Below are positions 11,459-27,097 of a DNA stretch of 50,654 nt, in pieces; position 1 is the first letter of the stretch; the number at the start of each line of letters is the position of its first letter. The stretch is from NCBI GenBank assembly GCA_019112665.1, contig DXIY01000096.1, forward strand, positions 1 through 50,654, in the 5' to 3' direction. The position numbers and the translations under genes are program-made. This stretch comes from Candidatus Ruthenibacterium merdipullorum (GTDB taxonomy: Bacteria; Bacillota; Clostridia; Oscillospirales; Ruminococcaceae). The notes under the pieces were generated by a model that was given only the letters and a program-made list of their open reading frames with translations, was not told where the DNA came from and did not search any database.

Positions 11459-11503
11459 GCACGCGCCCGGCGCGTAATGAAACATAAAGGAGCCTTTTGC
11501 CAT

Positions 11504-12637
11504 ATGGATAAGCACAGCGCTATCCTCATCACCGGCGCGGGCGGGTTTGTGGGAAAAAACCTGTGCGCAGCCCTGCGCTGCCGCGGGTATGACAACCTGC
11601 TTATGTTCGACCTTGACACCCCGAAAGAGGCCCTGCGCGAATATGCGCAGCAGGCCGCTTTCGTGTTTCATTTGGCGGGCGTAAACCGCCCGAAAGACCC
11701 AAGCGAATTTTACGCGGGCAACCGCGGCTTTACCGAAGAGCTTTTGCATCTTCTGGCCCAGGCGGGCAACAAGGCGCCCGTGCTGGTAACCTCCTCTGTG
11801 CAGGCAGAACTGGATAACGACTACGGCAAATCGAAACGCGAGGCAGAGCAGCTGATTTTCGCGCACGAGCGCGCCACCGGCGCCCCGGCGCTGGTGTACC
11901 GGCTGCCGGGCGTGTTTGGCAAATGGTGCCGCCCCGCCTATAACAGCGTGGTGGCCACGTTCTGCCACAACATTGCGCACGGCCTGCCCATTGAGGTGCG
12001 CGACAGGGCCTACACCCTGCCGCTTGTGTACATTGACGACGTAGTGGCCTGTTTCCTCAGCGCCATGGAGGGCCGCGCCGCGCGGGATTGTTCCATTCCC
12101 GGCTACTGCCATTTGATGTGCGAGGTGTACCAGACAAGCCTTGGGCACCTGGCGGATACCATCCGCAGCTTTGCCGAAAGCCGCGCCGCGCTGGCCGTGC
12201 CGGATATGGGCGACGCCTTTACGCGCAAGCTGTATGCCACCTACCTCTCTTACCTGCCCGAGGACGCCTTTGCCTACCCGCTTTGCACGCATGCGGACGC
12301 GCGCGGCAGCTTCACTGAATTTTTGCGCACGCCCGAGCGCGGGCAGGTTTCGGTGAACGTGGCAAAACCCGGCGTTGTAAAGGGCAACCACTGGCACCAC
12401 ACCAAAAACGAAAAATTTTTGGTGGTGAAGGGCCAGGCGGCCATCCGCTTCCGCAAACTGGGCACAAGCGAGGTGCTGGAATACCGCGTAAGCGGGGACA
12501 AGCTGGAGGTGGTGGATATTCCCACCGGCTATGTGCACAACATTGAAAATGTGGGCCAGGGCGAGCTTGTCACCATCATGTGGGCCAGCGAGCTTTTCGA
12601 CCCGCAGAACCCGGACACCTGGGCAGAGCAGGTGTAG
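11504..12637 (+). CDS. fnlB: FnlB/Cap5F/WbjC reductase-epimerase (SDR + cupin)
   Basis: TGAGGFVGKNL, HLAGVNRP, FGKWCRPAYNSVVATFC and cupin KGNHWHHTKNEKF motifs. Confidence 0.92.
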   Translation: MDKHSAILITGAGGFVGKNLCAALRCRGYDNLLMFDLDTPKEALREYAQQAAFVFHLAGVNRPKDPSEFYAGNRGFTEELLHLLAQAGNKAPVLVTSSVQAELDNDYGKSKREAEQLIFAHERATGAPALVYRLPGVFGKWCRPAYNSVVATFCHNIAHGLPIEVRDRAYTLPLVYIDDVVACFLSAMEGRAARDCSIPGYCHLMCEVYQTSLGHLADTIRSFAESRAALAVPDMGDAFTRKLYATYLSYLPEDAFAYPLCTHADARGSFTEFLRTPERGQVSVNVAKPGVVKGNHWHHTKNEKFLVVKGQAAIRFRKLGTSEVLEYRVSGDKLEVVDIPTGYVHNIENVGQGELVTIMWASELFDPQNPDTWAEQV

Positions 12638-12707
12638 AGCAGGTGTAAAGCAACTCTCACTTTTTATATTCTGATAAAATACACTTTTTTGCAATAAAGG
12701 GGCAGCC

Positions 12708-13847
12708 ATGAGCAAGCTGAAATTGATGACCATTGTGGGCACAAGGCCGGAGATTATCCGCCTTTCGGCCGTGATTAAAAAGTGCGACGTATACTTTGAC
12801 CAGCTTCTGGTGCACACGGGCCAGAACTACGATTACACGCTGAACCAGATTTTTTTTGAAGACCTTGGCCTGCGCGCGCCGGATTATTACCTGAATGCCG
12901 TGGGCGCCGACCTTGGCGAGACCATTGGCAACATCATTGCCAAAAGCTATGCCCTGATGGTGCAGGAAAAGCCGGACGCGCTGCTGATTTTGGGCGACAC
13001 CAACAGCTGCCTTTCGGCCATCAGCGCAAAGCGCCTGCACATCCCCATCTTTCATATGGAGGCGGGCAACCGCTGTTTTGACGAATGCCTGCCGGAAGAG
13101 ACGAACCGCCGCATTGTAGACCACATTGCGGATGTGAACCTGTGCTATTCCGAGCACGCGCGCCGCTATTTGAACGCCGAGGGCACCGCCAAAGAGCGCA
13201 CCTATGTCACCGGCAGCCCCATGGCCGAGGTGCTGCGCGCGAACCTTGCGCAGATCAAAGCCAGCGATGTGCTGGCAAGGCTGGGGCTGGAAAAGGGCAG
13301 GTATCTTCTGCTTTCGGCCCACCGGGAAGAGAACATCGACACGGAAAAGAATTTCACCGACCTGTTCACCTCCATCAACCATTTGGCCGAAATGTACGAT
13401 ATGCCCATTTTGTATTCGTGCCACCCGCGCAGCCGTAAATTTCTGCAGCAGCGCGGCTTTGTGCTGGATAAGCGCGTGCGCCTGCACGAGCCGCTGGGCT
13501 TTCACGATTACAACCACCTGCAGATGAACGCCTTCTGCGTGGTGAGCGATTCCGGCACGCTGCCGGAAGAGGCCAGCTTTTTCACCAGCGTGGGGCACCC
13601 CTTCCCCGCGGTGTGCATCCGCACCTCTACCGAGCGCCCCGAGGCGCTGGACAAGGGCTGCTTCATTCTGGCCGGCATCAGCCAGGGCGGCGTGGAACAG
13701 GCCGTGCAGACGGCCGTGGCCATGAATGCAAACGGCGATGTGGGCATTCCGGTGCCCTGCTATGCCGAGGATGTATCCACCAAAGTGGTGAAGATCATTC
13801 AAAGCTATGTGGGCGTTGTAAACAAAATGGTGTGGCGCAAGGCCTGA
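12708..13847 (+). CDS. fnlC: UDP-N-acetylhexosamine 2-epimerase (FnlC/Cap5G/WbjD)
   Basis: GTRPEIIRLS, HTGQNYD, HMEAGNRCFD..LPEE.NR and SDSGT.PEE motifs; follows fnlAB. Confidence 0.9.
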   Translation: MSKLKLMTIVGTRPEIIRLSAVIKKCDVYFDQLLVHTGQNYDYTLNQIFFEDLGLRAPDYYLNAVGADLGETIGNIIAKSYALMVQEKPDALLILGDTNSCLSAISAKRLHIPIFHMEAGNRCFDECLPEETNRRIVDHIADVNLCYSEHARRYLNAEGTAKERTYVTGSPMAEVLRANLAQIKASDVLARLGLEKGRYLLLSAHREENIDTEKNFTDLFTSINHLAEMYDMPILYSCHPRSRKFLQQRGFVLDKRVRLHEPLGFHDYNHLQMNAFCVVSDSGTLPEEASFFTSVGHPFPAVCIRTSTERPEALDKGCFILAGISQGGVEQAVQTAVAMNANGDVGIPVPCYAEDVSTKVVKIIQSYVGVVNKMVWRKA

Positions 13848-13954
13848 GCGCGCCATGCGAAAAACGGCGGCCCGGCAGGGCCCGCCAGGCGCAGCGCCCG
13901 CGCCGCCCCCGCCTGCCGCGCGGCGGCAGAGCACACAGCGAGGTGACGCAGAAG

Positions 13955-15193
13955 ATGGAACAGCAGCATAGGCGTATCCTTGTTGTGAGCCAGCATTACT
14001 GGCCGGAGAATTTCCGCATCACGGATATCTGCCGGGGCTTTGTGGAAAGCGGCGTGGAAGTGGACGTTTTATGCGGCCTGCCGAACTACCCGAAGGGCGA
14101 GTGGTTCGAGGGCTACCGCTATATGGGCCCGCGGCGCCAGCAGCACGAAGGCGTGCAGATATTTCGCGCGGGCGAAGTGCCGCGGCGCGGCAACACGGCC
14201 GCGCGCATTTTTTTGAACTATGTCTCCTGGCCGCTGTGCGCGCTGTTCAGCCTGTCAAGGCTGCACGGGCGGCACTATGACGCCGTGTTCTGTTACGAGA
14301 CAAGCCCTGTGCTGATGATGGTGCCCGCCATTGTATATGCAAAGCTGCACCGCGTGCCGCTTTGCACCTATGTGCTGGACCTGTGGCCCGAAAACCTCTA
14401 TTCGGTGCTGCCGGTAAAAAACCGCGCGCTGCGCGCTGTGGCGGCGGGCGTCTCGCATTGGCTGTACCGCCGCAGCGATGCCCTTTTGGGCATGAGCGAT
14501 GCGCTGGGCGAAAAGCTGCACGCCATTGCGCCGCGGCGCACGGTGGCGGTGGTGCCGCAGTATTGCGAAGACCTTTACGCCCGGGATGTGCACGACGAGG
14601 CGCTGGCGGCGCGCTTTGCCGGGCGCTTTTGCGTAGTGTTTGCGGGCAACATCAGCCCCGCGCAGGACCTTGGCCTGCTTGTCGCGTGCGCCAAGCGCCT
14701 TGCCGCACAGGGCCGCAGGGATATCCACTTCTGCATCGTGGGCGATGGCATGAGCCGGGCGCAGCTGGAAGCGGACATTGACAGCGCCGGTGTGCGGGAA
14801 TATTTCACCTTCGAGGGCATGCAGCCGGTAGAGCGCATCCCCGCCTACCACACCATGGCCGGCGCATTGTTTGCGGCGCTGGCCAAAAGCGACGATTTGG
14901 GCCTGACGGTGCCCGCAAAAATAACCAGCTATATGGCCGCGGGCCGGCCCGTGCTGGTGGCGGCAGACGGCGAGGCGGCGCGCGCCGTGCAAAGCGCAGG
15001 CTGCGGGCTTGCGTGCGCGGCGGGTGACGAAGAGGCGCTGTGCCGGAACCTTGTGCGCCTGGCGGATATGCCCGCCGAAGCGCGCGCCGCGCTGGGCAAA
15101 GCCGGGCGCAGCTATTTCCGGGCACACTACCGCCGCAGCCTGCTTTTGCAGCGGCTGCTGGCATGCATCCTTGGCGGTGAAAACGCCGAATGA
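13955..15193 (+). CDS. GT4 glycosyltransferase, WbuB/Cap5L-like (putative L-FucNAc transferase)
   Basis: SQHYWPENF, GLPNYP, DLWPE, FAGNI and PAKITSYMAAGRP motifs; directly follows fnlABC. Confidence 0.85.
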   Translation: MEQQHRRILVVSQHYWPENFRITDICRGFVESGVEVDVLCGLPNYPKGEWFEGYRYMGPRRQQHEGVQIFRAGEVPRRGNTAARIFLNYVSWPLCALFSLSRLHGRHYDAVFCYETSPVLMMVPAIVYAKLHRVPLCTYVLDLWPENLYSVLPVKNRALRAVAAGVSHWLYRRSDALLGMSDALGEKLHAIAPRRTVAVVPQYCEDLYARDVHDEALAARFAGRFCVVFAGNISPAQDLGLLVACAKRLAAQGRRDIHFCIVGDGMSRAQLEADIDSAGVREYFTFEGMQPVERIPAYHTMAGALFAALAKSDDLGLTVPAKITSYMAAGRPVLVAADGEAARAVQSAGCGLACAAGDEEALCRNLVRLADMPAEARAALGKAGRSYFRAHYRRSLLLQRLLACILGGENAE

Positions 15194-15205
15194 CGGGGTG
15201 AGGTT

Positions 15206-15937
15206 TTGAAAATACTGGTGATCATTCCCTGCTACAACGAGGCAGAAAATATTGCGCGCGTGGTGAAAAACCTGCAGGCGTCCGTGGCCGGGCAGGCTTT
15301 GCCCGGCCAGGTGGATTACCTTGTGGTGAACGACTGTTCCACCGACGGCAGCGCCGCAATTTGCGCGCGGGAGGGGTTTTCCTACATTTCCCTGCCGGTA
15401 AACCTTGGCATTGGCGGCGGCGTGCAAAGCGGGTATTTGTACGCCGCGCAGAACGGCTATGACATTGCCGTGCAGATGGACGGCGACGGCCAGCACGACC
15501 CCGCCTACCTTGCCAGCGTGGTGGGCCCTGTGGCGCGGGGCGAAGTGGACATGTGCGTGGGCAGCCGCTTTATTACCAAAGAGGGTTTTCAGACAAGTGC
15601 CATGCGGCGCGCGGGCATCCGGCTGCTCAGCGGGCTCATCCGCCTTTTGTGCGGCGTGCGCGTGCTGGATGTGACAAGCGGGTTTCGCGCCACCGGCCGG
15701 CGCCTGACGGAATTTTTTGCGCACCATTATGCGCAGGATTACCCCGAGCCCGAGGCCATTATCTCGGCCGTGCTGAACGGGTTTCGCGTGGGCGAGGCGC
15801 CCGTGGTAATGGCCGAGCGCATGGGCGGCACGTCCTCTATCAGCCCGCTGCGCTCTGTATATTATATGGTAAAGGTAAGCATTGCCCTTGTGGTATACCG
15901 GCTTACGCGCCCGCGCCGGAAAGGAGGCCGCGCATGA
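15206..15937 (+). CDS. GT2 polyprenyl-phosphate glycosyltransferase (DPM1/GacI-like)
   Basis: IPCYNE, VNDCSTD, NLGIGG, MDGDGQH, GSRF and DVTSGFR motifs; TTG start. Confidence 0.88.
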   Translation: MKILVIIPCYNEAENIARVVKNLQASVAGQALPGQVDYLVVNDCSTDGSAAICAREGFSYISLPVNLGIGGGVQSGYLYAAQNGYDIAVQMDGDGQHDPAYLASVVGPVARGEVDMCVGSRFITKEGFQTSAMRRAGIRLLSGLIRLLCGVRVLDVTSGFRATGRRLTEFFAHHYAQDYPEPEAIISAVLNGFRVGEAPVVMAERMGGTSSISPLRSVYYMVKVSIALVVYRLTRPRRKGGRA

Positions 15938-16335
15938 ACGTACCCAATATCGACCTTACCCTGCGGCTGGATTTGTTTCTTGGCGCTGCGGTGTTTCTGG
16001 CGGCCATTCTGTGGCTTTTGAAAAAGGGGCGGCTGACGGTGCGCTATTCCATCATCTGGCTGATGGCGGGCGGCGCGCTGCTTCTGTTCGCCGCGTTCCC
16101 CTACATTGTGCTGGTGCTGCGCGATTGGCTGAACATGGAAATGCCGGTGAACGTGGTTTTTACCCTGGTGCTTGCCTTTGTGCTTTTGCTGCTGCTCAGC
16201 CTTTCTACCATTGTGTCCGGCTTTGCGGAAAAGCTGAAGCGCCTTGCGCAGGAAAACGCCCTGCTGGAAAAGCGCGTGCGCGAGCTGGAACAGGCCCTTG
16301 CACAGCGCAAAGACGGGCCGGACGAGACAAAATAA
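15934..16335 (+). CDS. DUF2304 small membrane protein (GacJ-like)
   Basis: Three hydrophobic segments, YSIIW and C-terminal KLKRLAQENALLE; ATGA overlap with the GT2 gene. Confidence 0.8.
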   Translation: MNVPNIDLTLRLDLFLGAAVFLAAILWLLKKGRLTVRYSIIWLMAGGALLLFAAFPYIVLVLRDWLNMEMPVNVVFTLVLAFVLLLLLSLSTIVSGFAEKLKRLAQENALLEKRVRELEQALAQRKDGPDETK

Positions 16336-16410
16336 CACCGCCCTGCGGGCGGTTTTAAACACAGCGCGGTTGCGGCGCGCAAACCTTGTGTGGGGCGGAG
16401 TGAAGCTGCG

Positions 16411-17883
16411 ATGAATTTCATCACCCTTGCATTCTTCATTTTTCTGGCGGTTGCGGCACTGGTGTATTATATTCTTCCGCGCATTGCGCGGGCGGCATGG
16501 CTGTTGTGCTGCAGCTATGTGTTTTACCTATACGACCCGGCCAACGCCGGTTATCTTGTGTTGCTTTGTGCGGCCACGCTGGTCACCTGGGGGGCGGGCC
16601 TTGTGCTGGAGCGCGTGCAGCGCCCCGCCGCGCGCAAGGCCGTGTTGGCCGTGTGTGTGGCCGTGTGCATCGGCAGCCTTGGCTTTTACAAATATGCCGG
16701 CATGGTAACACAGTGGCTGAACGGGCTGTGGGGCCTGTTTGGGCAAAAGGACGCCTTCACAGCGCCAAGCTTTGCCGTGCCGCTGGGCATCAGCTATTTT
16801 TCCTTTATGGCGCTGGGCTATGCCATTGATGTATACCGCGGCAAGCCTGCCGAGCACAATGTGGTGCACTATGCGCTGTTTGTCAGCTTTTTTCCGTGCA
16901 TCGTCACCGGCCCTATCGAGCGCGGCGAGCATATTCTGCCGCAGCTTGCCTCGCCTGCGCCATTTGAATACGGGCGCTTTTGCGGCGGCATGTTCCGCAT
17001 TTTGTGGGGCCTGTTCAAAAAGCTGGTGGTGGCAGACAACATTGGCGTCATTGTGGCCTCTGTATACGGCAGCGTAACGCAAGAGGCCTACACGGGCCCG
17101 GTGTTTCTTTTGGCCAGCGTGCTGTTTGCCTATCAGCTATATTGTGATTTTTCCGCCTGCACAGACATTGCCATTGGCGCGGGCGAAATGTTCGGCATTC
17201 GCCTGATGGAAAATTTCCACCGCCCGCTGGCTGCGCACAGCTTCACCGATTTGTGGCGGCGCTGGCACATCAGCCTTACCAACTGGTTCCGCGATTATCT
17301 GTATATCCCCCTGGGCGGCAACCGCAAGGGCAAGTTCCGCCAGTATTTGAACCAGATCATTGTGTTTCTCACAAGCGGCCTGTGGCACGGCGCCAGCCTC
17401 ACCTTTGTGGTGTGGGGCCTTTTGAACGGCATTTACATGTGCATTGGCAAGGCCACGGCGCCCTGGCGCAGAAAAATGGAAAAGTATAACCCGCTTTACT
17501 GCACAAGGCCCACGCGCGCCTTTTTCAAAGTGGTGTGCACCTATTTGCTGTTCACAAGCTGCATCGTGTTCTTCCGTGCGGCCAGCTTTGAGGACGCCGC
17601 CTGGGTGTACAGCCATCTGTTCACCGGCTGGGGCGCCATGTTCACCGATTTTGAAGCCTTCCGCGAGGTGCTGGTGACCATTGGCTTCGATTTAAAGATG
17701 ACGCTGACGCTGCTGGTGGGCCTTGCCTTCACCGAGGGGCTGGAGGCCTTTGGCGTGCCCATGCATGAATTTATCCGCCGCTACCCGCTGGTGCTGCGCT
17801 GGCTTTTGTATTATGCGCTGGCCGGCATGATTTTGTTCTGCGGGGCGTTTGGCAAATCGGCGTTCATTTACCAGAACTTCTGA
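16411..17883 (+). CDS. MBOAT family O-acyltransferase (AlgI/PatA/DltB-like)
   Basis: PLGISYFSF, FFPCIVTGPIER, YCDFS, ENF, WRRWHISL.WFRDYLYIPLGGNR, GLWHG and FIYQNF motifs. Confidence 0.93.
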   Translation: MNFITLAFFIFLAVAALVYYILPRIARAAWLLCCSYVFYLYDPANAGYLVLLCAATLVTWGAGLVLERVQRPAARKAVLAVCVAVCIGSLGFYKYAGMVTQWLNGLWGLFGQKDAFTAPSFAVPLGISYFSFMALGYAIDVYRGKPAEHNVVHYALFVSFFPCIVTGPIERGEHILPQLASPAPFEYGRFCGGMFRILWGLFKKLVVADNIGVIVASVYGSVTQEAYTGPVFLLASVLFAYQLYCDFSACTDIAIGAGEMFGIRLMENFHRPLAAHSFTDLWRRWHISLTNWFRDYLYIPLGGNRKGKFRQYLNQIIVFLTSGLWHGASLTFVVWGLLNGIYMCIGKATAPWRRKMEKYNPLYCTRPTRAFFKVVCTYLLFTSCIVFFRAASFEDAAWVYSHLFTGWGAMFTDFEAFREVLVTIGFDLKMTLTLLVGLAFTEGLEAFGVPMHEFIRRYPLVLRWLLYYALAGMILFCGAFGKSAFIYQNF

Positions 17884-17899
17884 AAAGGGGGCGCGGCAG

Positions 17900-19132
17900 A
17901 TGGAAAAGAAAACGCAGGGGCAACGCCGCACGCTGCCCAAGCCGGTGAAAAAACTGTTCTGGGCCGGGCGCCTTGCCCTTGGCGCGGCCGCTTTTGTGCC
18001 CATTTTTCTGTTTATGGTGCTGTTCAACTTCAAGGTGGACTGCCAGGGCTATTTCCAGGGCGACCAGGAGCTGCGCGATGTGGTAGAGCTGATGCTGAGC
18101 GGCCATGACGTGGTGGGCGCCGAGCGGCTGAACAACAGCCAGCGCAAAATCATCAAAACCTTTGTGCACAATATGGAAGACGTGCCCGCCACCATCGCCC
18201 TGGGCTCCAGCCGGGTGATGATGATTTCCAGCGAGATGCTGAAGACAGACAGCTTTTACAACTGTGCCATCACGGGCGCAGACATGTACGACCTGATGGG
18301 CACCTATTATTTGTTTGAACAGCGCGGCGCCGTGCCGCAGAACATCATCATCGGGGTAGACCCGTGGGTGTTTGGCGGCGAGGACGCGGTGGACCCGCGA
18401 AGCGACAAAGCCCTGTATGCCGAGTTTCTTCTGCGCGACCTTGGCATTGAGACAGATTTTGAAACCGAAGACCCCACCATGAAGTGGGAGGCATTGTACT
18501 CCCCCAGCTATTTTCAGGGCAACCTCACCTATTTTCTGTCTGCCCGCGGCGAGGTGGTGCAGCCCCAGGCCGTAGAGGGCGACGTGATGAACCAGGACAC
18601 CGAGGTGATGCGCTCGGACGGCAGCATTGTGTACAGCCGCTCGTTCCGCACGCAGCCGCAGGAGGCCGTTGACGCCGCCGCGCTGGGGCAGACAAGCAAT
18701 TTCTTCCGGGTGGAATATTATGAAGAGCCCGAGGAAGAGCGCATTGAGCTGTTCACCAAATTTGTGCAGTATCTGCAGGGCAAGGGCATCCGCGTGGTAC
18801 TCCTTCTTTCGCCCTATCACCCCATCGCCTATGACAACGCCATGGAAAACGCCGAGCACTACAGCGGCTTTGTGGCCACAGAGCCGCTGATTCGCCGCAT
18901 TGCCAAGCAGCTGGACGTGCCGGTGTACGGCAGCTATAACCCCTATGCCATGGGCCTGACGAACGCAGATTTCTATGACGGCATCCATGTGCGCAGCGAG
19001 GCGCTTTCCACCTTCCTTCCCCCGCTGGAGGATATTTTGTATAATTTGGAGAACGGCGTGGATGTCTCGGTAAACTACCGCCAAAAAGCCCCGCAGGAAG
19101 AGGACACGCCCAAAGACGCACAGCTGACATAA
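17900..19132 (+). CDS. Membrane-anchored SGNH-like protein (AlgJ/PatB/DltD-type partner of the MBOAT)
   Basis: N-terminal TM helix, LGSSR block I, late DGIH (DxxH) motif; follows the MBOAT gene. Confidence 0.65.
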   Translation: MEKKTQGQRRTLPKPVKKLFWAGRLALGAAAFVPIFLFMVLFNFKVDCQGYFQGDQELRDVVELMLSGHDVVGAERLNNSQRKIIKTFVHNMEDVPATIALGSSRVMMISSEMLKTDSFYNCAITGADMYDLMGTYYLFEQRGAVPQNIIIGVDPWVFGGEDAVDPRSDKALYAEFLLRDLGIETDFETEDPTMKWEALYSPSYFQGNLTYFLSARGEVVQPQAVEGDVMNQDTEVMRSDGSIVYSRSFRTQPQEAVDAAALGQTSNFFRVEYYEEPEEERIELFTKFVQYLQGKGIRVVLLLSPYHPIAYDNAMENAEHYSGFVATEPLIRRIAKQLDVPVYGSYNPYAMGLTNADFYDGIHVRSEALSTFLPPLEDILYNLENGVDVSVNYRQKAPQEEDTPKDAQLT

Positions 19133-19138
19133 CACACA

Positions 19139-19176
19139 AAATGAAACGGCCCGGTTTTTACCGGGCCGTTTCATTT
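19139..19176. terminator. Bidirectional terminator
   Basis: AAATGAAACGGCCCGG...CCGGGCCGTTTCATTT perfect stem between convergent genes. Confidence 0.85.
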
Positions 19177-19207: not shown

Positions 19208-20575
19208 TTAGAAGAGGAAGCCCGCCACCAGGTAAAGCAGCGTTGTCACCCCGGCGCCAATCAGGCAATAGGGCAGCTGCGTGGTGGCATGTTCCATATT
19301 GTCTATTTTCGTCATGCCAGAGGTGAAAATGGTGACATCGCAATAGAAGCAGGCGTGCGCGCCGAACGCCGCGCCCGAAATGACCGCAGAGAGCACCATG
19401 GGCATGTTGCCGCCCACAGAGGCGCACAGCGGAATGACAACGGCCGCCACCGGAAGCGTAGAGCCCCAGTTGGTGCCGGACATGAAAGCCAGCAGCGCGC
19501 AGATTACAAATGTGATGACAGGCAGCAGCGCCGGGCTCATGAACGGCTGGGCAATCGAGATGACATATTCCGGCATGCCAATGGCAATGAGGGAATCGCG
19601 CACCATGTAGGCCGCAAACACAATGACAATCATGGGCACCATGTCGGTGATGCCCTGCATGCAGGCCTTCATCAGCTCGTTCCAGCGCGCCAGCCTCAGT
19701 GCCAGGAACAGCACAAACGCCACGGCGATGGTGACAAGCGAGCCCAACACAACGTCGCCGTTGACAAGCACGATGACAATGAACACCGCCAACGGGATAA
19801 TAAAGCCGGCCAGCAGCTTTTTGGTTTTCACAGAGTCCAGCGGTGCTTCCTCGCCATCGTCCGTATTCAGTGCATCGCTTTCCTCCGAATACAGCCGGCC
19901 GGTGGCCTGTGCGCGTTCATACGCCTTTTTCATGGCGCCCATGGGCTTGAGCACGCCCAGCGCCACCAGCAGGGCAATGGCCACGGACACCCAGCCGTAG
20001 AAGATAAACGGCACGGTGGAATTGTATACGCTCATGCTGTCGCCCAGGGCCGTAACCTCGGCATAGCCCACAAACACAGATTGATAGAAAATGCCCCATG
20101 TGCCAATGGGAATCAGCGCGTTCAGCGGCGAGGCCTGCGCGTCTGTGATATAGCTGAGCATGGCGCGCGGAATTTTGTTTTTATCGTACAGTTTTGTCAT
20201 GGTGCCGCGCACGGCAATGCTGGTGAAATCGTCAATGAACACCAGAATGCCAATCACCCAGGTAAGCAGCAGCGTGCGGCGCTGGTTGGTGGCGTATTTT
20301 TGCAGCTGTTCGGCCAGGGCGCGCGTGGCCCCCGTGTGGGACCAGATGCCCAATACACACCCGAACAGCGCCACAAACAGCACATACCAGATGGTGTCTT
20401 CGTCACAGCCCACTGCATACATCAAATCGATAAACCCGGTAAGAAAGCCGGTTTTATACTGCAGAATGCAGCACAAAAGCGCGCCCGCCAGCAGCGAGGA
20501 CGTGGTGTTTCTAGTTTTCAGCGCCATCAGCAGAATGACAATGGGCGGCAACAGCGTCAGAATGCCAAGTTCCAT
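19208..20575 (-). CDS. NhaC/ArcD-like (IT superfamily) transporter, paralog 1
   Basis: Polytopic hydrophobic protein with FIDDF, YITD..ASP, GTNWG and GAAFGAH motifs; last gene of the carbamoyltransferase-deiminase operon. Confidence 0.85.
   Translation of the reverse strand: MELGILTLLPPIVILLMALKTRNTTSSLLAGALLCCILQYKTGFLTGFIDLMYAVGCDEDTIWYVLFVALFGCVLGIWSHTGATRALAEQLQKYATNQRRTLLLTWVIGILVFIDDFTSIAVRGTMTKLYDKNKIPRAMLSYITDAQASPLNALIPIGTWGIFYQSVFVGYAEVTALGDSMSVYNSTVPFIFYGWVSVAIALLVALGVLKPMGAMKKAYERAQATGRLYSEESDALNTDDGEEAPLDSVKTKKLLAGFIIPLAVFIVIVLVNGDVVLGSLVTIAVAFVLFLALRLARWNELMKACMQGITDMVPMIVIVFAAYMVRDSLIAIGMPEYVISIAQPFMSPALLPVITFVICALLAFMSGTNWGSTLPVAAVVIPLCASVGGNMPMVLSAVISGAAFGAHACFYCDVTIFTSGMTKIDNMEHATTQLPYCLIGAGVTTLLYLVAGFLF
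19577..19634. repeat. 58-bp tract identical (inverted) to 25144-25201
   Basis: Reverse complement matches 25144-25201 base for base (codons MIVIVFAAYMVRDSLIAIG). Confidence 0.9.
20418..20482. repeat. 65-bp tract identical (inverted) to 24293-24357
   Basis: Reverse complement GCGCTTTTGTGCTGCATTCTGCAGTATAAAACCGGCTTTCTTACCGGGTTTATCGATTTGATGTA matches 24293-24357 exactly. Confidence 0.92.
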
Positions 20576-20638
20576 ACTCTCCTCCTCTTTCTCAAGGTTC
20601 CGGCGGGGTTTTGCGGCCCCGCCGGGCATTGTGCACGT

Positions 20639-21769
20639 TTACTTCACAACCTGCTGGGTAAAGCAGTGAATAGAGCCGCCGCACAGCGCAATTTCGTGCG
20701 CGTTCACCGGGCGCACCACATAGCGGCCCGCCACAATTTCTTCCAGGCACTTTACGGCCTCTTCGTCCGTATCCAGCCCATAGATGGGGAAGATGATAGA
20801 GCCGTTGGTGATGAGGAAGTTTGCATAACTGGGCACGGCGAAATCGCCCTCTTTGCGCCACTTGCCGTCCGGGTTCTGGCCCACGCCCTGGGACACCAGC
20901 ACGTTTTCCGCCTCTTCTTTTGTAATGCGGAACGGCTTGCACGCCGTGAGCTTGTGCACCTTCAGCTTGCGGCCCTTTGCATCGGTGGAGTTGCACAATA
21001 TCTCATAGCAGTTTTTGAACACTTTGTAGTACTCGTTGGTGGGGTCCTCGGTGTAGCAGCACACCACCTCGGCGGGCCCAATAAACGAGCAGATGTCATC
21101 CACATGGCCGTCTGTCTCGCCCGCGTTCAAATCGATGCCCTCGTTCAGCCAAATAACCTTTTCAAAGCCCAGGTAGGTTTTCAGCTTTTCCTCAATTTGC
21201 TGCCGGGTAAGGCCGGGGTTGCGGTTCGGGTTCAGCAGGCAGCTTTCGGTGGTAATCACCGTGCCCTCGCCGTCCGCGATAATAGAGCCGCCCTCCAGCA
21301 CAAAGGTGGTTTTGTAGCGGTCGTGCCCGGTGGCCTGCAGCATCTTGCGCGCGGCCAAATCGTCGTTGGCATAGCTGATCATGGCGCCGTTGGAATCGCC
21401 GCCCCAGGCATTGAATTTGAAATCCACCCCGCGCACTTCGCCCGTTTTGCGGTTCTTCACATAGATGGCGCCGCTGTCGCGCGGCCAGCAGTTATCCAGC
21501 GACATCTCGTAAATGGATACATCCAGCCCGGCGAAGATATACTCTGTCTCCAGGTACAGGTCGTTGGGCACGCCAATGTTCACATGGGTGCCGGCGGCAT
21601 TGATGGCCTTGGCCAGGTTCACCTGGGTTTCGCGAATTTTAAACCCGCCGTTGTGCCAGTGTGAGTAGGCGCCGCCCACCAGCAGCCACACGGCCGACTG
21701 CGGCTCGAACTCTGCGGGCATCACAAAGCCGTCCTCATAGGGCAGCGTTTTCAGCAAATGCGATGACAT
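20639..21769 (-). CDS. Agmatine deiminase-family (PAD_porph) guanidino-group hydrolase, divergent
   Basis: MPAEFEP, W.RD.G, FNAWGG, LEGGS, ETDGHVDD, SYANF and GGSIHCFTQQ (catalytic Cys) motifs. Confidence 0.9.
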   Translation of the reverse strand: MSSHLLKTLPYEDGFVMPAEFEPQSAVWLLVGGAYSHWHNGGFKIRETQVNLAKAINAAGTHVNIGVPNDLYLETEYIFAGLDVSIYEMSLDNCWPRDSGAIYVKNRKTGEVRGVDFKFNAWGGDSNGAMISYANDDLAARKMLQATGHDRYKTTFVLEGGSIIADGEGTVITTESCLLNPNRNPGLTRQQIEEKLKTYLGFEKVIWLNEGIDLNAGETDGHVDDICSFIGPAEVVCCYTEDPTNEYYKVFKNCYEILCNSTDAKGRKLKVHKLTACKPFRITKEEAENVLVSQGVGQNPDGKWRKEGDFAVPSYANFLITNGSIIFPIYGLDTDEEAVKCLEEIVAGRYVVRPVNAHEIALCGGSIHCFTQQVVK

Positions 21770-21827
21770 ATTCCATCCAACCTTTCTTGCATTTTATACT
21801 GCCGGGCGCGCGGCGCCCGGCCCTGGT

Positions 21828-22937
21828 TCAACGTGTTGCATGCGTGAGCTGTGTGCCGAATTTTTTGTTCATGTAATCGATCTTCTCCCGCACAATCGCG
21901 CCCTCTTCCGTCAGCTCGGCCTGGCTGGGCTGGCTGGAGCGCGGGCCCATCAGGTATGCCATCAGGCCGCGCTGAGTGTGCAGGCGGTTCTCGGCCTGCT
22001 GCCACAAAAGCGAGCCCTCAAAATCCATGGCGTAATCGTCCATCTCTTTGCCGCGCAGCGCGGGCAGGTAATGCATGGTTTTGGCGCCCGGGCAGTGTGC
22101 AAGCAGCTCTTTGTTCACCTGGAAGCCCTTGTCAAGGAACACCTCCTGGAAATATTCAAAATCGCTTTTGCTTTCGGTGCCCTCATAGCAGAAGCAGCCG
22201 GTGTACACAAAGTCTGCCGCCTGCACGGCCTCTACGGGGTCGTGGGTGGTGAGGATGCGGCCGCCGCCCTCTTTCACCGCCTGCTCGCGGCAGATAAGGT
22301 TGCGCTGAATCATCCATTCCGGGTTGTTATCCTTCTCACCGCCCAGCGTGTGCCCCTCGGGGCTGCACAGCACCACAGTGGCGCCAAAGCGCGGCAGCAG
22401 CTTGGCAAGGTCGTTGGCAGAGGTTTCGCGCACGCCGGTGGCACCCACAAAGGCCAGGCGGATATCTTTCAGCTCTTTGCCCTCGGGCAAATGCTCCAGA
22501 ATGGTGACAAAGTCGCACAAAGTCTGCGTCGGGTGGCGGGTATGGTCCATGCCGTTGAAAAACGGCACGCTGCACTGGGCCACAAACTCTTCCATCTCTT
22601 TGGTGTTGCGCCAGCGCATGGCAATGCCGTCCACCATGCTGGAGACAACGCGCGCGGTGTCGCCAATGGTTTCGCGTTTGCCCAGGTGCAGCTCGCCCTC
22701 TGGCCCGCCCGTGAGGAACAGGGCGTGCGCGCCCAGCTGCTGGGCGGCCACCTCGAAGGAGATGCGCGTGCGCGTAGAGTTTCCGTTAAAAATCATGGCA
22801 ATCGATTGCCCCTGAAGCAGCTTGGGCACCGTGCCCTCGTACGCGTCCTTTTTCAGACGGCGAATCAGGTCTGCCAGTGCCAGAAGTTCCTCGGTGGAGT
22901 AATCCCAGCAATCCATAAAGTGTTTTACCGGTTTCAT
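21828..22937 (-). CDS. Putrescine-carbamoyltransferase-like transcarbamylase with altered acceptor site
   Basis: STRTR, HPTQ, EHLPEGK and QAENRLH motifs are present, but it has FVGA, YTGCFCY and HYLP instead of FVGD, YTDVW and HCLP. Confidence 0.85.
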   Translation of the reverse strand: MKPVKHFMDCWDYSTEELLALADLIRRLKKDAYEGTVPKLLQGQSIAMIFNGNSTRTRISFEVAAQQLGAHALFLTGGPEGELHLGKRETIGDTARVVSSMVDGIAMRWRNTKEMEEFVAQCSVPFFNGMDHTRHPTQTLCDFVTILEHLPEGKELKDIRLAFVGATGVRETSANDLAKLLPRFGATVVLCSPEGHTLGGEKDNNPEWMIQRNLICREQAVKEGGGRILTTHDPVEAVQAADFVYTGCFCYEGTESKSDFEYFQEVFLDKGFQVNKELLAHCPGAKTMHYLPALRGKEMDDYAMDFEGSLLWQQAENRLHTQRGLMAYLMGPRSSQPSQAELTEEGAIVREKIDYMNKKFGTQLTHATR

Positions 22938-22999
22938 AAATACAGCAACCCCGTTTCTTGTGTTGTTCCAGGCTGGTGCATTGCTCAGCCTGCGCTTTT

Positions 23000-23137
23000 A
23001 TTCTAACGGATGCATTTTCATGTTACAATTACACAGAATTATGATGTTGATATAACAATTTTTAGTTAAAACATCTTATAATTTCTCTTGTAATGCTCAT
23101 CTTTTTTCTTGACAAGGCCTGGTAACCTTGGTAGCAT
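23000..23137. promoter_or_regulatory. Divergent promoters for the carbamoyltransferase operon (-) and the LuxR-type regulator (+)
   Basis: Minus: TTGTAA (23023-23028), 17 bp, TAGAAT. Plus: TTGACA (23109-23114), 17 bp, TAGCAT (23132-23137) with an extended TG. The region is AT-rich. Confidence 0.6.
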
Positions 23138-23218
23138 AAACCTGTTGAAAATTTTTTGAAGCAGGGTTTGCACGGTGTGCAACGCCCGTTTTAATCGGTA
23201 AAAAAGGGGTGTCGAACT

Positions 23219-23989
23219 ATGGAGCACAGCATCAACAGCGCACAGTGGTATCAGTTGGACGAATTGACCGCCACCATTTACAACACGTCATTCGACCACT
23301 TGTTTGAAGTTGTTTTGAAGGGTATCAAGCAGCTGGTGCCGTACTCGCATTCGCTTACCTACCTGCTTCGAAGCGAGGACGGGTTGAACGTGAGCTTTAA
23401 TTTTAAAAGCGACGAGATCCCGCCCGAGCATTTGCGCCTGTACCTGGATAAATATTCCCGGCTGGATTTCATCAACTGGTACACCGGCACCTGCGCGGCC
23501 GAGGTGTTCCGCGAGTCGGACATTCTTCCCAACGACCTGCGGGAACGCTCTATTTTTATGAAGAACTGGATGGAGCCCATTGGCCTGTACCACGGCGCGG
23601 GCATGGTGATTTGGTGCAAGGGCATTTCATACGGCTCTATTTTTCTTTACCGCCCCAAGGACGCCGAAGATTTTTCCGGCCAGGAGCTGGAAGTGCTGCG
23701 CGTAATAAACCGCCATTTGTGCCTGCGCGCCCACGCGCTATACCCAAACGGCCTGGGGCAGATGTTTGTGCAGCAGGGCGCAGGCGACGGGGCCGTGCTT
23801 TCTGTCACCTGCCTGACAAAGCGCGAGCGCGAGATCATCGACTGCATCCGCAACCATGTGCTGCGCAGCGAGCTGTGCGACAAGCTTTTTATCACAGAAA
23901 ATACGCTGAACAAACATTTTGACAACATTTATAAAAAGCTGAACATCAATTCTTATGAAGAGCTGCTGCAGCTTATCAAAAAAAGGTGA
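23219..23989 (+). CDS. LuxR-family HTH transcriptional regulator with soluble N-terminal sensor domain
   Basis: C-terminal LTKREREII...LCDKLFITENTLNKHFDNIYKKLNI; GAF-like N-terminus (LYRPKDAEDFSGQELEVL); no TM helices. Confidence 0.85.
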   Translation: MEHSINSAQWYQLDELTATIYNTSFDHLFEVVLKGIKQLVPYSHSLTYLLRSEDGLNVSFNFKSDEIPPEHLRLYLDKYSRLDFINWYTGTCAAEVFRESDILPNDLRERSIFMKNWMEPIGLYHGAGMVIWCKGISYGSIFLYRPKDAEDFSGQELEVLRVINRHLCLRAHALYPNGLGQMFVQQGAGDGAVLSVTCLTKREREIIDCIRNHVLRSELCDKLFITENTLNKHFDNIYKKLNINSYEELLQLIKKR

Positions 23990-24002
23990 CGTAACGCACC
24001 GC

Positions 24003-24037
24003 GCCCCGGGCTTTTGCTGCCCGGGGCCTTATTTTTT
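24003..24037 (+). terminator. Intrinsic terminator after the LuxR gene
   Basis: GCCCCGGGC-loop-GCCCGGGGC followed by TTATTTTTT. Confidence 0.75.
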
Positions 24038-24199
24038 ACCGTGCTGCATTTTTACAAATTCTTGTAATGCGCCCGGCATAAAAATAACAGGATTCTGGAA
24101 TTGATTGTTCCCGCCGCTGGATATACCATATCAAGAGAAGGGGCAATTCGCAAAAAAATATGGGCTTTTTGCCAGATGAACAAAGGGGATGAGGCTTTT

Positions 24200-25573
24200 A
24201 TGGAACTTGGAGCATGGACACTTCTGCCGCCTTTAGTGATTATTGTCATGGCCATCAAAACCAAAAGCACAACCTCCTCGCTGGTGGCGGGTGCGCTTTT
24301 GTGCTGCATTCTGCAGTATAAAACCGGCTTTCTTACCGGGTTTATCGATTTGATGTACTCGGTGGGCTGCAACGAGGACACCGTGTGGTATGCCCTGTTT
24401 GTGGCGCTGTTCGGCTGCATTCTGGGCATCTGGTCTTCCACCGGGGCCACCGGCGCGGTGGCGGATAAACTGATGAAGTTTGCCACCACACAGCGCCGCA
24501 CGCTGGTGCTTTCCTGGCTGGTGGGCATTCTGCTGTTTATTGACGATTTCACCAGCATCGCCGTGCGCGGCACCATGACAAAGCTGTATGATAAAAACAA
24601 AATTCCGCGCGCCATGTTGGCGTATATTGCCGATTCCACCGCCTCACCCATGTGCATCCTGATTCCGTTCGGCACCTGGGCCATTTTTTATCAATCTGTG
24701 TTCGCGGGCTACCCCGAGGTAACCGCCTTGGGCAGCCCCATGGAAGTATACATCCGCACCATTCCCTACCTGTTTTACGGCTGGGCCGCACTGCTCATTC
24801 CCCTGCTGCTTTCGCTGGGCGTGTTGCCTCAGGTTGGCGCCATGAAAAAAGCCTACCAGCGCGCACAGGCTACCGGTGAGCTGTATGGCCCCGAAAGCCG
24901 CGCGCTGAACAGCGGCAGCGAAGACGCCCCCGCCGCAGAAAGCGGCACCGGCAGCTTTAAGCAGGTGGCATGCTTTCTGGTGCCGCTGGGCTGCTTTATT
25001 GCGGCCGTGCTGGCCACGAGCGATGTGATTATTGCCTGCATGCTCACCCTGGCCGTTCTGGTGGCCATGTGCCTTGTGATGCGGGTTGCCGGCTGGGGGC
25101 AGATGATGGGCGCCTGCATGAACGGCATCAAAGATATGACCAGCATGATTGTCATTGTGTTTGCGGCCTACATGGTGCGCGATTCCCTCATTGCCATTGG
25201 CCTGCCGGAATATGTGGTGGCTGTGGCCCGCCCGTTTATGAGCCCGGAGCTTTTGCCCCTTATCACCTTTATCGCCTGCACCATCCTCACCTTTGCCTCG
25301 GGCAGCAACTGGGGCGCCACGCTGGCCGTGGCTGCCATTGTCATTCCGCTTTGCGCCGCCCTGCAGGGGAACATGATTTTGGTGCTGGCGGCCATTGTTT
25401 CGGGCGCCGCGTTTGGCGCGCATGTGTGCTTTTACTGTGATGTGACGGTGTTTACCTCTGGCATGACGAAGATAGATAACATCGAGCACGCCGTTACACA
25501 GCTGCCCTACGGGCTGCTTGGCATGGCCGTAAGCTGCGTGGGGTACCTGCTGGCAGGTTTTCTTCTGCACTAG
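24200..25573 (+). CDS. NhaC/ArcD-like transporter, paralog 2
   Basis: Colinear close homolog of 19208-20575 (MELGAWTLLPP..., FIDDFTSIAVRGTMTKLYDKNKIPRAML); own putative promoter TTGATT-17-TACCAT at 24101-24129. Confidence 0.87.
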   Translation: MELGAWTLLPPLVIIVMAIKTKSTTSSLVAGALLCCILQYKTGFLTGFIDLMYSVGCNEDTVWYALFVALFGCILGIWSSTGATGAVADKLMKFATTQRRTLVLSWLVGILLFIDDFTSIAVRGTMTKLYDKNKIPRAMLAYIADSTASPMCILIPFGTWAIFYQSVFAGYPEVTALGSPMEVYIRTIPYLFYGWAALLIPLLLSLGVLPQVGAMKKAYQRAQATGELYGPESRALNSGSEDAPAAESGTGSFKQVACFLVPLGCFIAAVLATSDVIIACMLTLAVLVAMCLVMRVAGWGQMMGACMNGIKDMTSMIVIVFAAYMVRDSLIAIGLPEYVVAVARPFMSPELLPLITFIACTILTFASGSNWGATLAVAAIVIPLCAALQGNMILVLAAIVSGAAFGAHVCFYCDVTVFTSGMTKIDNIEHAVTQLPYGLLGMAVSCVGYLLAGFLLH

Positions 25574-25599
25574 GCCCCGGCCTTTTCTGCAAAACACCG

Positions 25600-25639
25600 G
25601 CCCGGCCCGCTTTTTTGGCGGGCCGGGCTTTGTTTTTTT
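25600..25639 (+). terminator. Intrinsic terminator
   Basis: GCCCGGCCCGC/GCGGGCCGGGC stem followed by a T-rich tail. Confidence 0.8.
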
Positions 25640-25729
25640 CGCCCAGGGGGGCCTGTGCCCTTGCATTTCTGCGAAGGCGTAGTACAATAAGACAGTGTCA
25701 TGCAACAATATGGAAGGGAGATGCCCCTT

Positions 25730-27097
25730 ATGCCGGGGAGCGAACAGGGCGCCAGCCGCCCCCTTTTCACGCGCAGCGAGCTGCTGCGCCTTATTATTCC
25801 GCTTGTAATTGAACAGCTTCTGCTGATGACGGTGGGCATGGCAGACACGGTGATGGTGACCACCTCCGGTGAGGCCGCCGTGTCTGGCGTGTCGCTGGTG
25901 GATAATATCAACACACTCATCATTCAGATCTTCTCCGCCCTTTCCACCGGCGGCGCCGTGGTGGTGGCCCAGTACCTGGGCCGCCGGGAGGCCGGCAACG
26001 CAAAGCTTGCCTCCAAGCAGCTTTTGTACACCATGACCGCGGTGTCTGTGTTTCTGATGGCTGCCGCCCTTCTTTTCCGCCAGCACATTTTAAGCCTGAT
26101 TTTCGGCCATGTAGAGGCAGACGTGATGGAAAGCGCCCTGATGTATTTTCTGATTACCGCGGCCGCCTACCCCTTCATGGGCGTATACAACGCGGGCTCG
26201 GCGCTGTTCCGGGCCATGGGCAACAGCAGCGTTTCCATGTTCTGCTCTTTGGTGGTGAATGTCATCAACATTGCCGTCAACGCCATTTTCATCTACGGCT
26301 TTGGCATGGGCGCGGCCGGGGCGGGCATTGGCACGCTGGCCTCGCGCATTGCCGCCGCCATCATCATTATGGTCATGCTGAACCACAAAAGCAACGCCGT
26401 GCGCGTGGAGGGTGTGTTCCACCTTGAATTCCGAGGCGACATGATTAAGCGCATTCTGTTCGTGGGCATTCCCAACGGGCTGGAAAACGGCATGTTCCAG
26501 GCGGGCAAGCTGGTGGTGCTGAACCTGATTGCCACCTTTGGCACCTCGGCCGTGGCGGCCAACGCCATTGCCAACAGCATTGCCGGCGTGGTGAACGTGC
26601 CGGGCACGGCCATTGGCCTTTCCATCATTACGGTGATTGGCCGCTGCATGGGCGCGGGCGAGACAGGCCAGGCCGCACATTACACAAAGCGGCTGGTGGG
26701 CGCCAGCTATGTGTGCATGCTGGTGATGAGCACGGGCATGTTCCTGTTTGCCGACACGCTGGTTTCGTGGTTCAACCTCACCCCGCAGGCCGTGCAGATG
26801 GCCGGGCAGGTGCTGCGGGCATGCGCGGTGGGCAACGTGCTGTTCTGGCCCATGGCTTTCACCCTGCCAAACTCGCTGCGCGCCGCGGGCGACGCCGTGT
26901 TCACCATGGGCGTTTCGCTGTGCAGCATGTTCGCATGCCGCGTGGCCCTCAGCTATGTGATGGCCTGTGAATGGGGCCTGGGGCTTGGCCTGCTGGGTGT
27001 GTGGCTGGCCATGATTGCCGACTGGGTGGCGCGCGCCGTGCTGTTCTTTGTGCGCTACCGTCAGGGCAAGTGGAAAAAAATCAAAGTCATCGGCTGA
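25730..27097 (+). CDS. MATE family efflux transporter
   Basis: P..IEQLL...GMADTVMV, GEAAVSGVSLVD, AQYLG, RAMGNS and LRAAGD motifs; start uncertain (25700/25721/25730). Confidence 0.9.
   Translation: MPGSEQGASRPLFTRSELLRLIIPLVIEQLLLMTVGMADTVMVTTSGEAAVSGVSLVDNINTLIIQIFSALSTGGAVVVAQYLGRREAGNAKLASKQLLYTMTAVSVFLMAAALLFRQHILSLIFGHVEADVMESALMYFLITAAAYPFMGVYNAGSALFRAMGNSSVSMFCSLVVNVINIAVNAIFIYGFGMGAAGAGIGTLASRIAAAIIIMVMLNHKSNAVRVEGVFHLEFRGDMIKRILFVGIPNGLENGMFQAGKLVVLNLIATFGTSAVAANAIANSIAGVVNVPGTAIGLSIITVIGRCMGAGETGQAAHYTKRLVGASYVCMLVMSTGMFLFADTLVSWFNLTPQAVQMAGQVLRACAVGNVLFWPMAFTLPNSLRAAGDAVFTMGVSLCSMFACRVALSYVMACEWGLGLGLLGVWLAMIADWVARAVLFFVRYRQGKWKKIKVIG

Follow-up and report, generated by a model that had tools for sequence, protein, structure and literature searches.

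A conserved agmatine deiminase-like module of gut Clostridia with an altered carbamoyltransferase and deiminase

Introduction

Which compound is broken down by a gene cluster that has relatives of the enzymes of the bacterial agmatine deiminase pathway (general background in PMC12283126), with the substrate loops of both enzymes changed? The question arises from five genes at positions 19,208–25,573 of contig DXIY01000096.1 (assembly GCA_019112665.1) of Candidatus Ruthenibacterium merdipullorum; the whole analyzed stretch of this contig, 50,654 nucleotides, is called the window. A first-pass annotation made from the sequence alone had read the genes as a module re-tooled for another guanidine. 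We find the module to be a conserved, undescribed variant that works like the agmatine deiminase pathway. Its overall chemistry is very likely catabolic, a deiminase acting together with a transcarbamylase, and its preferred substrate is likely to be something other than agmatine. The reading that we favor, at a probability of about 0.45, is ATP-yielding catabolism of an agmatine analogue with an extended cationic tail. The genes are as follows.

19208..20575, minus strand: transporter 1, NhaC/ArcD-type (PF03553), 455 amino acids; Pfam E-value 2.4e-31
20639..21769, minus strand: AguA-like deiminase (PAD_porph), 376 amino acids; TIGR03380, residues, fold, and tree
21828..22937, minus strand: carbamoyltransferase resembling putrescine transcarbamylase (OTCace family), 369 amino acids; TIGR04384/TIGR00658, residues, fold, and tree
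23219..23989, plus strand: soluble LuxR-type regulator (GerE helix-turn-helix), 256 amino acids; PF00196, E-value 1.4e-8
24200..25573, plus strand: transporter 2 (PF03553), 457 amino acids; Pfam, 67% identity to transporter 1

All five genes are intact and lie where the first-pass annotation had put them, as a three-gene operon on the minus strand with a divergent regulator and a second transporter. For each transporter the most likely start is an internal ATG, at 20575 (behind GGAGGAG) and at 24200 respectively, rather than the start of the longest open reading frame (ORF); the N-termini of homologues match there. Ratios of nonsynonymous to synonymous substitution (dN/dS) of 0.015–0.10 against three same-genus relatives indicate purifying selection on all five genes and rule out a decaying or chance cluster; they are 0.015–0.047 for both enzymes, about 0.06 for transporter 1 (from two of the three relatives, the gene being cut off in locus L010), and 0.06–0.09 for transporter 2. 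The source genome is 94.8% complete. At least four studies have chicken gut metagenomes that contain the stretch. In two RNA runs from chicken gut, cover was low and just as even across the module as across its flanks, and it may stem from DNA. Where genomes, contigs, loci, and proteins have to be told apart, they carry our own numbers (G, C, L, and P), the present genome being G000.

Carbamoyltransferase

The carbamoyltransferase does not bear the published signature of a putrescine transcarbamylase (PTC) and by that standard is not one. It scores 286.9 bits against the PTC profile TIGR04384 (cut-off 500), with which the canonical PTCs of module-bearing genomes reach 534–551 bits, and 252.9 bits against TIGR00658 for ornithine transcarbamylase (OTC; cut-off 280.85). 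Its predicted structure (pLDDT, the predicted local distance difference test, 90.7) has the PTC of Enterococcus faecalis, 4a8h, as its best Foldseek match, and a PTC-type extra C-terminal helix is predicted at residues 344–360. The carbamoyl-phosphate site, with the motifs HPTQ and HxLP, is kept: STRT, R108, H135, Q138, H289, P292, and R318 are found in 49 of 49 sequences of the clade described below.

The acceptor site is changed, as the first-pass annotation had proposed. DVWYGLY and HCLP are PTC signatures (PMC3282769), and D227, Y233, and Q164 shape the putrescine site of the E. faecalis enzyme (PMC4581275). All three of these residues are lost in the clade. DVWYGLY has become G247-C-F-C-Y-E-G, with an Asp227 equivalent in 0/49 sequences and with YEG at the position of the OTC SMG loop; HCLP has become HYLP (Tyr290) in all 49; and Q50 of E. 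faecalis PTC is replaced by Gly52, again in all 49, which leaves neither the OTC Lys nor the PTC Gln two residues before STRT. Gly/Ser247 goes together with Tyr290 throughout the clade (49/49), and Asp with Cys in 32/32 PTCs of the DVWYGLY type, in 52/52 OTCs, and, once the 55 sequences that combine Gly/Ser with an aromatic residue are set aside, in 129 of the remaining 131; these 55 sequences represent one or a few related branches, so the covariation is not independent evidence. Acidic residues have been gained at D131 (47/49) and at E171, D176, and E252 (49/49 each), and by alignment the new charges would face the pocket. The acceptor-site set of the present enzyme is G52, D131, R134, E171, G247-CFC-Y251-E252, and Y290.

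In an IQ-TREE phylogeny of 44 chosen rows, the clade has 100/100 support on a stem of 0.79 substitutions per site and lies outside the DVWYGLY (E. faecalis-type) PTCs, within a radiation of putative PTC-like enzymes; a FastTree phylogeny of 186 rows agrees. Identity as an OTC is ruled out by Gly52 in place of Lys, by YEG in place of SMG, and by the TIGR00658 score below cut-off. The knotted transcarbamylase YgeW (60.2 bits, cut-off 500) and AOTC (114.6 bits, cut-off 288) are ruled out by their profile scores, and the best folds listed are PTC and OTC.

Deiminase

Profile, residues, and tree place the deiminase in the AguA family but leave its specificity uncertain. It scores 372.7 bits against TIGR03380 (cut-off 381.8), compared with 545–590 bits for four canonical copies. 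Its model (pLDDT 90.3) has the pentein fold, with E. faecalis agmatine deiminase (AgDI) 2jer as the best match at a template modeling (TM) score of 0.92. Catalytic C369, H222, D224, D98, W95, and N317 are invariant in 38/38 aligned sequences and match the six mechanistic positions C357, H218, D220, D96, W93, and N306 of E. faecalis AgDI (PMC4487231).

IQ-TREE analysis of 37 chosen rows recovers the deiminase clade with 100/100 support on a stem of 0.80 substitutions per site, nested within canonical AguA and sister to the group that holds this genome's own canonical copy (99/94). Descent from an agmatine deiminase followed by fast change is thus the likely history, and fast change on such a stem would be the usual pattern of a functional shift. 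The first-pass annotation had named nesting of both enzymes in the canonical clades as evidence against its reading: such nesting is seen for the deiminase, though on a long stem, but not for the carbamoyltransferase, which lies outside the E. faecalis-type PTCs.

The changes concentrate in four entrance loops, which differ from those of all 32 canonical AguA sequences compared (51 clade and 32 canonical rows out of 98 deiminases). The changed loops had been part of the initial claim and stand, except that the canonical set was picked by WPxRxDNW, so that the contrast at this motif is circular; the equivalents of its Pro32 and Asp36 occur in 0/51 clade deiminases. The bulky GLYFPW lid is slimmed to G-A/C-x-x-x-Y/W. 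In the ETNGH and GGNIHC loops, Asp220 and Ser366 each replace Asn in 51/51 sequences. Loop 211–221 is two residues longer and more acidic than in the canonical enzymes (a mean of 4.1 versus 2.3 acidic residues), and loop 293–311 is six residues longer. Glu218, four residues before the catalytic His, is kept in 50/51 clade members and aligns with Asp220 of Medicago agmatine iminohydrolase, which binds the terminal amine of agmatine and also bonds the gate arginine Arg301 (PMC6447857). Because of this second role, the retention of Glu218 is suggestive of distal-amine binding but not decisive.

The clade alignment falls into two sub-types, one linked to NhaC-type transporters (GVRETSAND, GGxYSHWH) and one APC-linked or Eggerthella-type (DDxxESSxxD, LAxxxxxWYNG), which may differ in substrate.

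Distribution and gene neighborhood

Protein searches recovered 45 carbamoyltransferase clusters at 60–99% identity, followed by a drop to at most 49% (87 matches in total), and 42 deiminase clusters at 57–100% identity. In a 50%-identity library a single full-length representative scored 682.7 bits, the next ones 404.7 and 264.8. Where a source is named, clade members belong to Ruminococcus sp., Eggerthella sinensis, and Clostridium estertheticum, and databases label clade members as OTC, PTC, hypothetical, or agmatine deiminase. A metagenome scan with the clade alignment used patterns that were too general and returned only relatives at 31–39% identity, which served as outgroups.

We located the module in 11 genomes of gut Clostridia: this one, three congeneric ones, G061–G065, G664, and G714. 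Its occurrence is patchy, with 4 of 37 genomes in the genus, 3 of 251 in the family of G065, and 3 of 151 among the relatives of G063, and a class-wide draw of 399 other genomes (one of them unscored) gave no clade-level match, the best reaching 380.7 bits as compared with 736.6.

The neighborhood is conserved, a point that the first-pass annotation had proposed to check. Carbamoyltransferase and deiminase genes directly adjoin, in this order, in 11/11 genomes (split over two contigs in G714), and a regulator of this LuxR family and two transporters are each present in 10/11; G664, with its locus at the start of a contig, stands apart in both respects. The transporter pair is NhaC-type in nine genomes, Emergencia has two APC transporters instead, and at least one transporter in G664 resembles those. 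Other deviations that the annotation had taken as signs of re-tooling are real but carry less. Carbamate kinase is absent from the locus, as claimed; it adjoins the module in two of the 11 loci, 3' of the transporters (L014 and L017), and a copy over cut-off exists somewhere in all 11 genomes, the present one having two over the TIGR00746 cut-off on other contigs, so its absence is no mark of a new pathway. The regulator indeed has no hydrophobic segment, but a member of the same soluble family (32% identity) adjoins a canonical AguA/PTC pair in L159. Similarly, the two PF03553 transporters are as described, but an NhaC-type transporter adjoins the canonical cluster L163, and in Emergencia the module occurs with another transporter family. 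One relative, L014, has an AraC-like regulator and a 553-residue solute-binding-like lipoprotein between the LuxR gene and the carbamoyltransferase (L014:4692-7803; labels by inspection, without NCBIfam match).

Several module-bearing genomes also have canonical agmatine genes. G063 and G714 contain a complete canonical cluster (PTC at 546 bits, AguA at 588–590, kinase, APC transporter, and membrane-type regulator), and G062 retains broken remnants of one. Such coexistence argues for separate jobs and favors a different substrate for the module. The present genome has a second, canonical aguA (551 bits; C3:34583-35677, L180), intact and under purifying selection. This orphan gene occurs in exactly the four module-bearing genomes of the 37 in the genus (G000:C3, G027:C3, G034:C30, and G036:C2), which are close kin of one lineage and count as one event. 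It lies divergent from pyrB-pyrI, near a YfcC-type basic amino acid antiporter.

Proposed pathway and its substrate

From family and layout, the two NhaC/ArcD-type transporters would take up the guanidine and release the amine product from the cell. The Cys369-His222-Asp224 deiminase would convert R-NH-C(=NH)NH2 to R-NH-CO-NH2 and ammonia, and the carbamoyltransferase, presumably working in the degradative direction, would phosphorolyze this urea to R-NH2 and carbamoyl phosphate. Carbamate kinase, adjoining in some relatives and encoded elsewhere here, could then yield ATP. The soluble LuxR/GAF-like regulator would sense the substrate or an intermediate inside the cell and activate both promoters.

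A substrate other than agmatine is favored by the long stems followed by strong conservation, by the parallel canonical clusters and the second, canonical aguA of this genome, and by the lost putrescine-site residues. Retained Glu218, the more acidic loop 211–221, the slimmer lid, the gained D131, E171, D176, and E252, and the absence of the OTC Lys favor a cationic tail. N1-aminopropylagmatine is the first candidate because it has a nitrogen at the position of the agmatine amine and needs more room and acid beyond it: its secondary amine would sit at the terminal-amine spot and its aminopropyl arm in the widened, more acidic entrances, and it would pass through N-carbamoylspermidine to spermidine. 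PMC13625781 describes AguA homologues that are specialized for aminopropylagmatine and bis-guanidino-homospermidine or that probably act on them, Bacteroides fragilis and Clostridium leptum from the gut make aminopropylagmatine as an intermediate (PMC13683441), and the compound acts on host cells and accumulates in speB mutants (PMC12749970). That this very compound is the substrate is, for all that, quite unlikely.

Several points weigh against an extended cationic tail. The carbamoyltransferase has also lost two acids, the equivalents of D162 and D227, and has gained a clade-specific Arg134 (46/49) beside HPTQ that could bind a carbonyl or a carboxylate. Arg305 of the deiminase is kept in 50/51 members, so that Glu218 may persist for a structural salt bridge, and the presumed biosynthetic deiminases L117–L123 of other Clostridia have other loops than the clade. 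Residue roles are assigned by alignment to published structures. None of the 11 module neighborhoods holds a substrate-specific gene, and the literature covered gives no sign of abundant free aminopropylagmatine in the gut lumen. Agmatine itself is brought back by three further observations: the Emergencia deiminase passes the AguA cut-off (404.1 versus 381.8), no further full-length aguA exists in G061, G064, or G065, and in the four genomes with the orphan aguA (G036 among them being just 71% complete) neither PTC nor AguB passes its cut-off. Because the orphan gene has been kept without such a partner, the module carbamoyltransferase may well take N-carbamoylputrescine too, unless the user of that compound is either the nitrilase on C8 or the odd carbamoyltransferase on C118. 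A widened pocket that takes putrescine as well as a longer amine would fit the orphan aguA and the parallel clusters alike.

These observations also bear on the reading that the module is an ordinary agmatine deiminase pathway which has diverged and may have broadened its specificity, with Tyr290, Tyr251, and Glu171/Glu252 rebuilding the putrescine site of Asp227 and Tyr233. We consider it somewhat unlikely. The deiminase nests in canonical AguA, keeps W95, W/Y122, and E218, and its clade straddles the AguA cut-off, but both enzymes sit on long stems with changes only in substrate loops. Pocket residues vary among putative PTCs, and whether the variants are true PTCs is unsettled according to reviews (PMC4581275); against this, the Asp and Cys pair holds in nearly all sequences outside the Gly/Ser and aromatic group. 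The orphan aguA and the three genomes without another aguA fit agmatine, whereas two genomes have a full canonical cluster besides the module and four a second deiminase. In addition, Eggerthella lenta has a second annotated agu operon, perhaps akin to the module, that is not induced by agmatine (PMC10234575).

The first-pass annotation had gone further and held that R lacks a free distal amine. Neutral-tailed compounds of this kind, such as N-acetylagmatine, galegine, or hydroxycinnamoyl-agmatine from cereals (candidates in part from that annotation), would suit the loss of the PTC distal-amine ligand through Asp227-to-Gly, the aromatic surface added by Tyr290 and Tyr251, an Arg134 able to bind an amide carbonyl, and the opened deiminase lid. 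The host species occurs in chicken gut metagenomes, and cereal diets are usual for chickens. We nevertheless regard a neutral tail as decidedly unlikely, and the claim itself finds no support: Glu218 is kept, loop 211–221 has become more acidic, and the acceptor loops show a net gain of conserved acids, namely Asp131, Glu171, Asp176, and Glu252. An acid at or near the Glu171 position is also present in sister enzymes that have no Asp227 (P0051–P0053, P0056, and P0059). An acidic guanidine (4-guanidinobutyrate, guanidinoacetate, or taurocyamine) or a guanidino amino acid (homoarginine or canavanine) might draw on Arg134 next to HPTQ and on Arg88 in the 80s loop, but Arg88 is also present in 35/35 putative PTCs of the DLWWW type, the carboxylate-binding Lys and the SMG loop of OTC are absent, and four new acids point toward the pocket by alignment, which makes such substrates very improbable. 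A biosynthetic module, with the carbamoyltransferase run forward or feeding polyamine synthesis, has in its favor that carbamate kinase does not adjoin in 9/11 loci. It is just as hard to credit, given two conserved transporters and a conserved sensor regulator and no decarboxylase or aminopropyltransferase in any neighborhood. Two such families were also searched for in whole genomes: carboxy(nor)spermidine decarboxylase stayed below its cut-off in 5/5 genomes checked, this one among them, and the spermidine synthase family had no match here.

The original proposal of a module for another guanidine is therefore borne out in part: distinct long-stem clades, the failed PTC signature, and a coexisting canonical cluster in 2/11 genomes carry it, while three of the deviations on which it leaned proved weak or unsupported. 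Beyond the favored cationic-tail catabolism, we can imagine a third fermentative guanidine pathway that draws ATP from N1-aminopropylagmatine or a bis-guanidine (diagmatine or arcaine) through a dedicated deiminase and a spermidine-type transcarbamylase, the clade being one branch of a wider, mis-annotated agu-like radiation with each branch tuned to its own guanidine. In this full form the idea is unlikely.

Other agu-like clusters

Divergent agu-like clusters occur in further gut anaerobes: L158 (G641:C314), L160 (G724:C210), L161 (G734:C7), L162 (G734:C42), and L020. Each has its own odd carbamoyltransferase and/or deiminase, and G734 alone has three PTC-like loci. L158 holds two deiminases and a probable solute-binding protein, L162 combines DCLP with a 434-residue deiminase, and L020 has Gly/HFLP. 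Together they suggest a radiation of guanidine-using modules.

Two other loci belong to the present genome. The odd carbamoyltransferase on C118 (G000:C118:8921-9913, L181) has HPLP, a 230-loop reading YAKSWGSTHG, and a long tree branch; by inspection, its neighbors are a dihydroorotase/allantoinase-like amidohydrolase, dihydropyrimidine-dehydrogenase-like genes, and a sodium/solute symporter-like gene, so that the cluster possibly serves ureide or pyrimidine catabolism. On C8 (G000:C8:7543-11112, L182), an NCS1-like transporter (by inspection), a nitrilase-family amidase (151.6 bits with the AguB model, cut-off 410), and a carbamate kinase form one cluster.

Transporters, regulator, and regulatory elements

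Transporter 1 has 10 hydrophobic segments and a weak ArcD match (55 bits, cut-off 650); a structure search found no solved relative. It is predicted, by family, to serve guanidine uptake or substrate/product exchange. A recent duplication is ruled out by the identity of just 67% between the two transporters and by the branching of transporter 2, which lies below the first copies from every other genus. The regulator has a top 19-residue hydropathy of 1.05. At its N-terminus, Atlas feature matches point to GAF (41% of members) and Autoind_bind (25%) clusters with scores of 0.95–0.96, and it is predicted to be a ligand-activated activator with a GAF/autoinducer-like cytoplasmic sensor. The following elements accompany the genes.

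19139..19176, minus strand: terminator-like hairpin ending the carbamoyltransferase-deiminase-transporter operon; 17-pair stem and T tract, consensus scan
23000..23028, minus strand: candidate sigma-70 operon promoter TTGTAA-17-TAGAAT; consensus scan, like a -35/-10 pair seen by eye at this position in related loci
23053..23068, no strand: candidate operator upstream of the promoter of the operon, reading T(A/T)AC-N8-GT(A/T)A as an imperfect palindrome; pattern search
23109..23137, plus strand: candidate regulator promoter TTGACA-17-TG-TAGCAT; consensus scan, 10/12 with extended -10
24003..24027, plus strand: terminator-like hairpin 3' of the regulator; hairpin scan
24052..24067, no strand: second candidate operator, upstream of transporter 2; pattern of 23053-23068, with similar 16-mers there in L010–L012
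24101..24129, plus strand: possible weak transporter 2 promoter TTGATT-17-TACCAT; picked by eye outside the consensus-scan list, 8/12 consensus
25599..25629, plus strand: terminator-like hairpin for both strands, 3' of transporter 2; hairpin scan

T(A/T)AC-N8-GT(A/T)A has nine sites in the 2.1-Mb genome, two of them inside the module; the pattern was drawn post hoc and serves as a lead only. Upstream of the operon, L013, L014, L016, L017, and L018 have a common 16-bp candidate palindrome, TACT(C/T)-N6-(A/G)AGTA, from which the L015 box is one base off; in these loci outside the genus it is a candidate site for the LuxR family. The loci do not fit one common operator consensus, as the candidate box of this genus has other spacing.

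Adjacent genes

An EmmdR/YeeO-like MATE exporter lies directly 3' of transporter 2 (25700-27097); it is adjacent in genus-level relatives only and probably stands outside the module. On the other side, a surface-polysaccharide cluster (10409-19132, labels by inspection) converges on the module terminator, with UDP-sugar epimerases, glycosyltransferases, and an MBOAT-like acyltransferase whose partner has no family match. Farther on, a membrane protein with an alpha/beta-hydrolase domain (30984-32915) lies beside glycerol-utilization-like genes (neighbors by inspection).

Significance

Transcarbamylases with new acceptors are rarely found, and the clade offers a clean test: both enzymes keep their catalytic cores, the swaps in their pockets are sharply defined, and a canonical pair encoded alongside can serve as a control. 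Since members go under the database labels OTC, PTC, or agmatine deiminase, figures for agmatine consumption and putrescine formation that are derived from gut metagenomes may be in error where such members are counted. Should aminopropylagmatine be the substrate, the module would tie bacterial cross-feeding to a host-active polyamine (PMC12749970); a third pathway of the kind outlined above would remove a reported inhibitor of host deoxyhypusine synthase and release spermidine. The rarity of the module, at 4/37 genomes in the genus and 0/399 others in the class-wide draw, limits its importance.

Comparison with known systems

The literature covered, with subscription journals and preprint supplements outside its scope, contains no description of the module clade or of a spermidine-type transcarbamylase. 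A published hint that gut anaerobes have agu-like operons for 'a related compound' is the second agu operon of E. lenta DSM 2243 (PMC10234575), which may be akin to the module; Eggerthella sinensis has members of both module clades (P0024 and P0116). Diagmatine iminohydrolase (G44G) and presumed N1-aminopropylagmatine iminohydrolases are AguA folds shifted to tail-extended cations (PMC13625781). They are biosynthetic and paired with an AguB-type amidohydrolase.

With the arginine deiminase pathway (ArcA-ArcB-ArcC-ArcD), of which this genome has its own cluster on C39, the module shares the logic of deimination, phosphorolysis, and kinase, and its transporters match ArcD weakly. Its deiminase, however, is of the PAD_porph family rather than ArcA, and its carbamoyltransferase has neither the Lys nor the SMG loop of OTC.

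The nearest relative is the aguR/aguBDAC system of E. faecalis. Both have the same enzyme folds, catalytic residues, PTC-type C-terminal helix, and divergent LuxR-family regulator, and in both the carbamoyltransferase comes first in the operon (PMC3796520). Sequence identity is 33% to PTC 4a8h and 41% to AgDI 2jer. E. faecalis AguR has membrane helices, and the canonical regulators of L164 and L167 have four to five hydrophobic segments, whereas the module regulator is soluble. The module likewise differs in its missing PTC signature, in the rebuilt lid of its deiminase, in a carbamate kinase that is often encoded off-site, and in its transporters, a pair of NhaC type (or of APC type) where E. 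faecalis has the single AguD.

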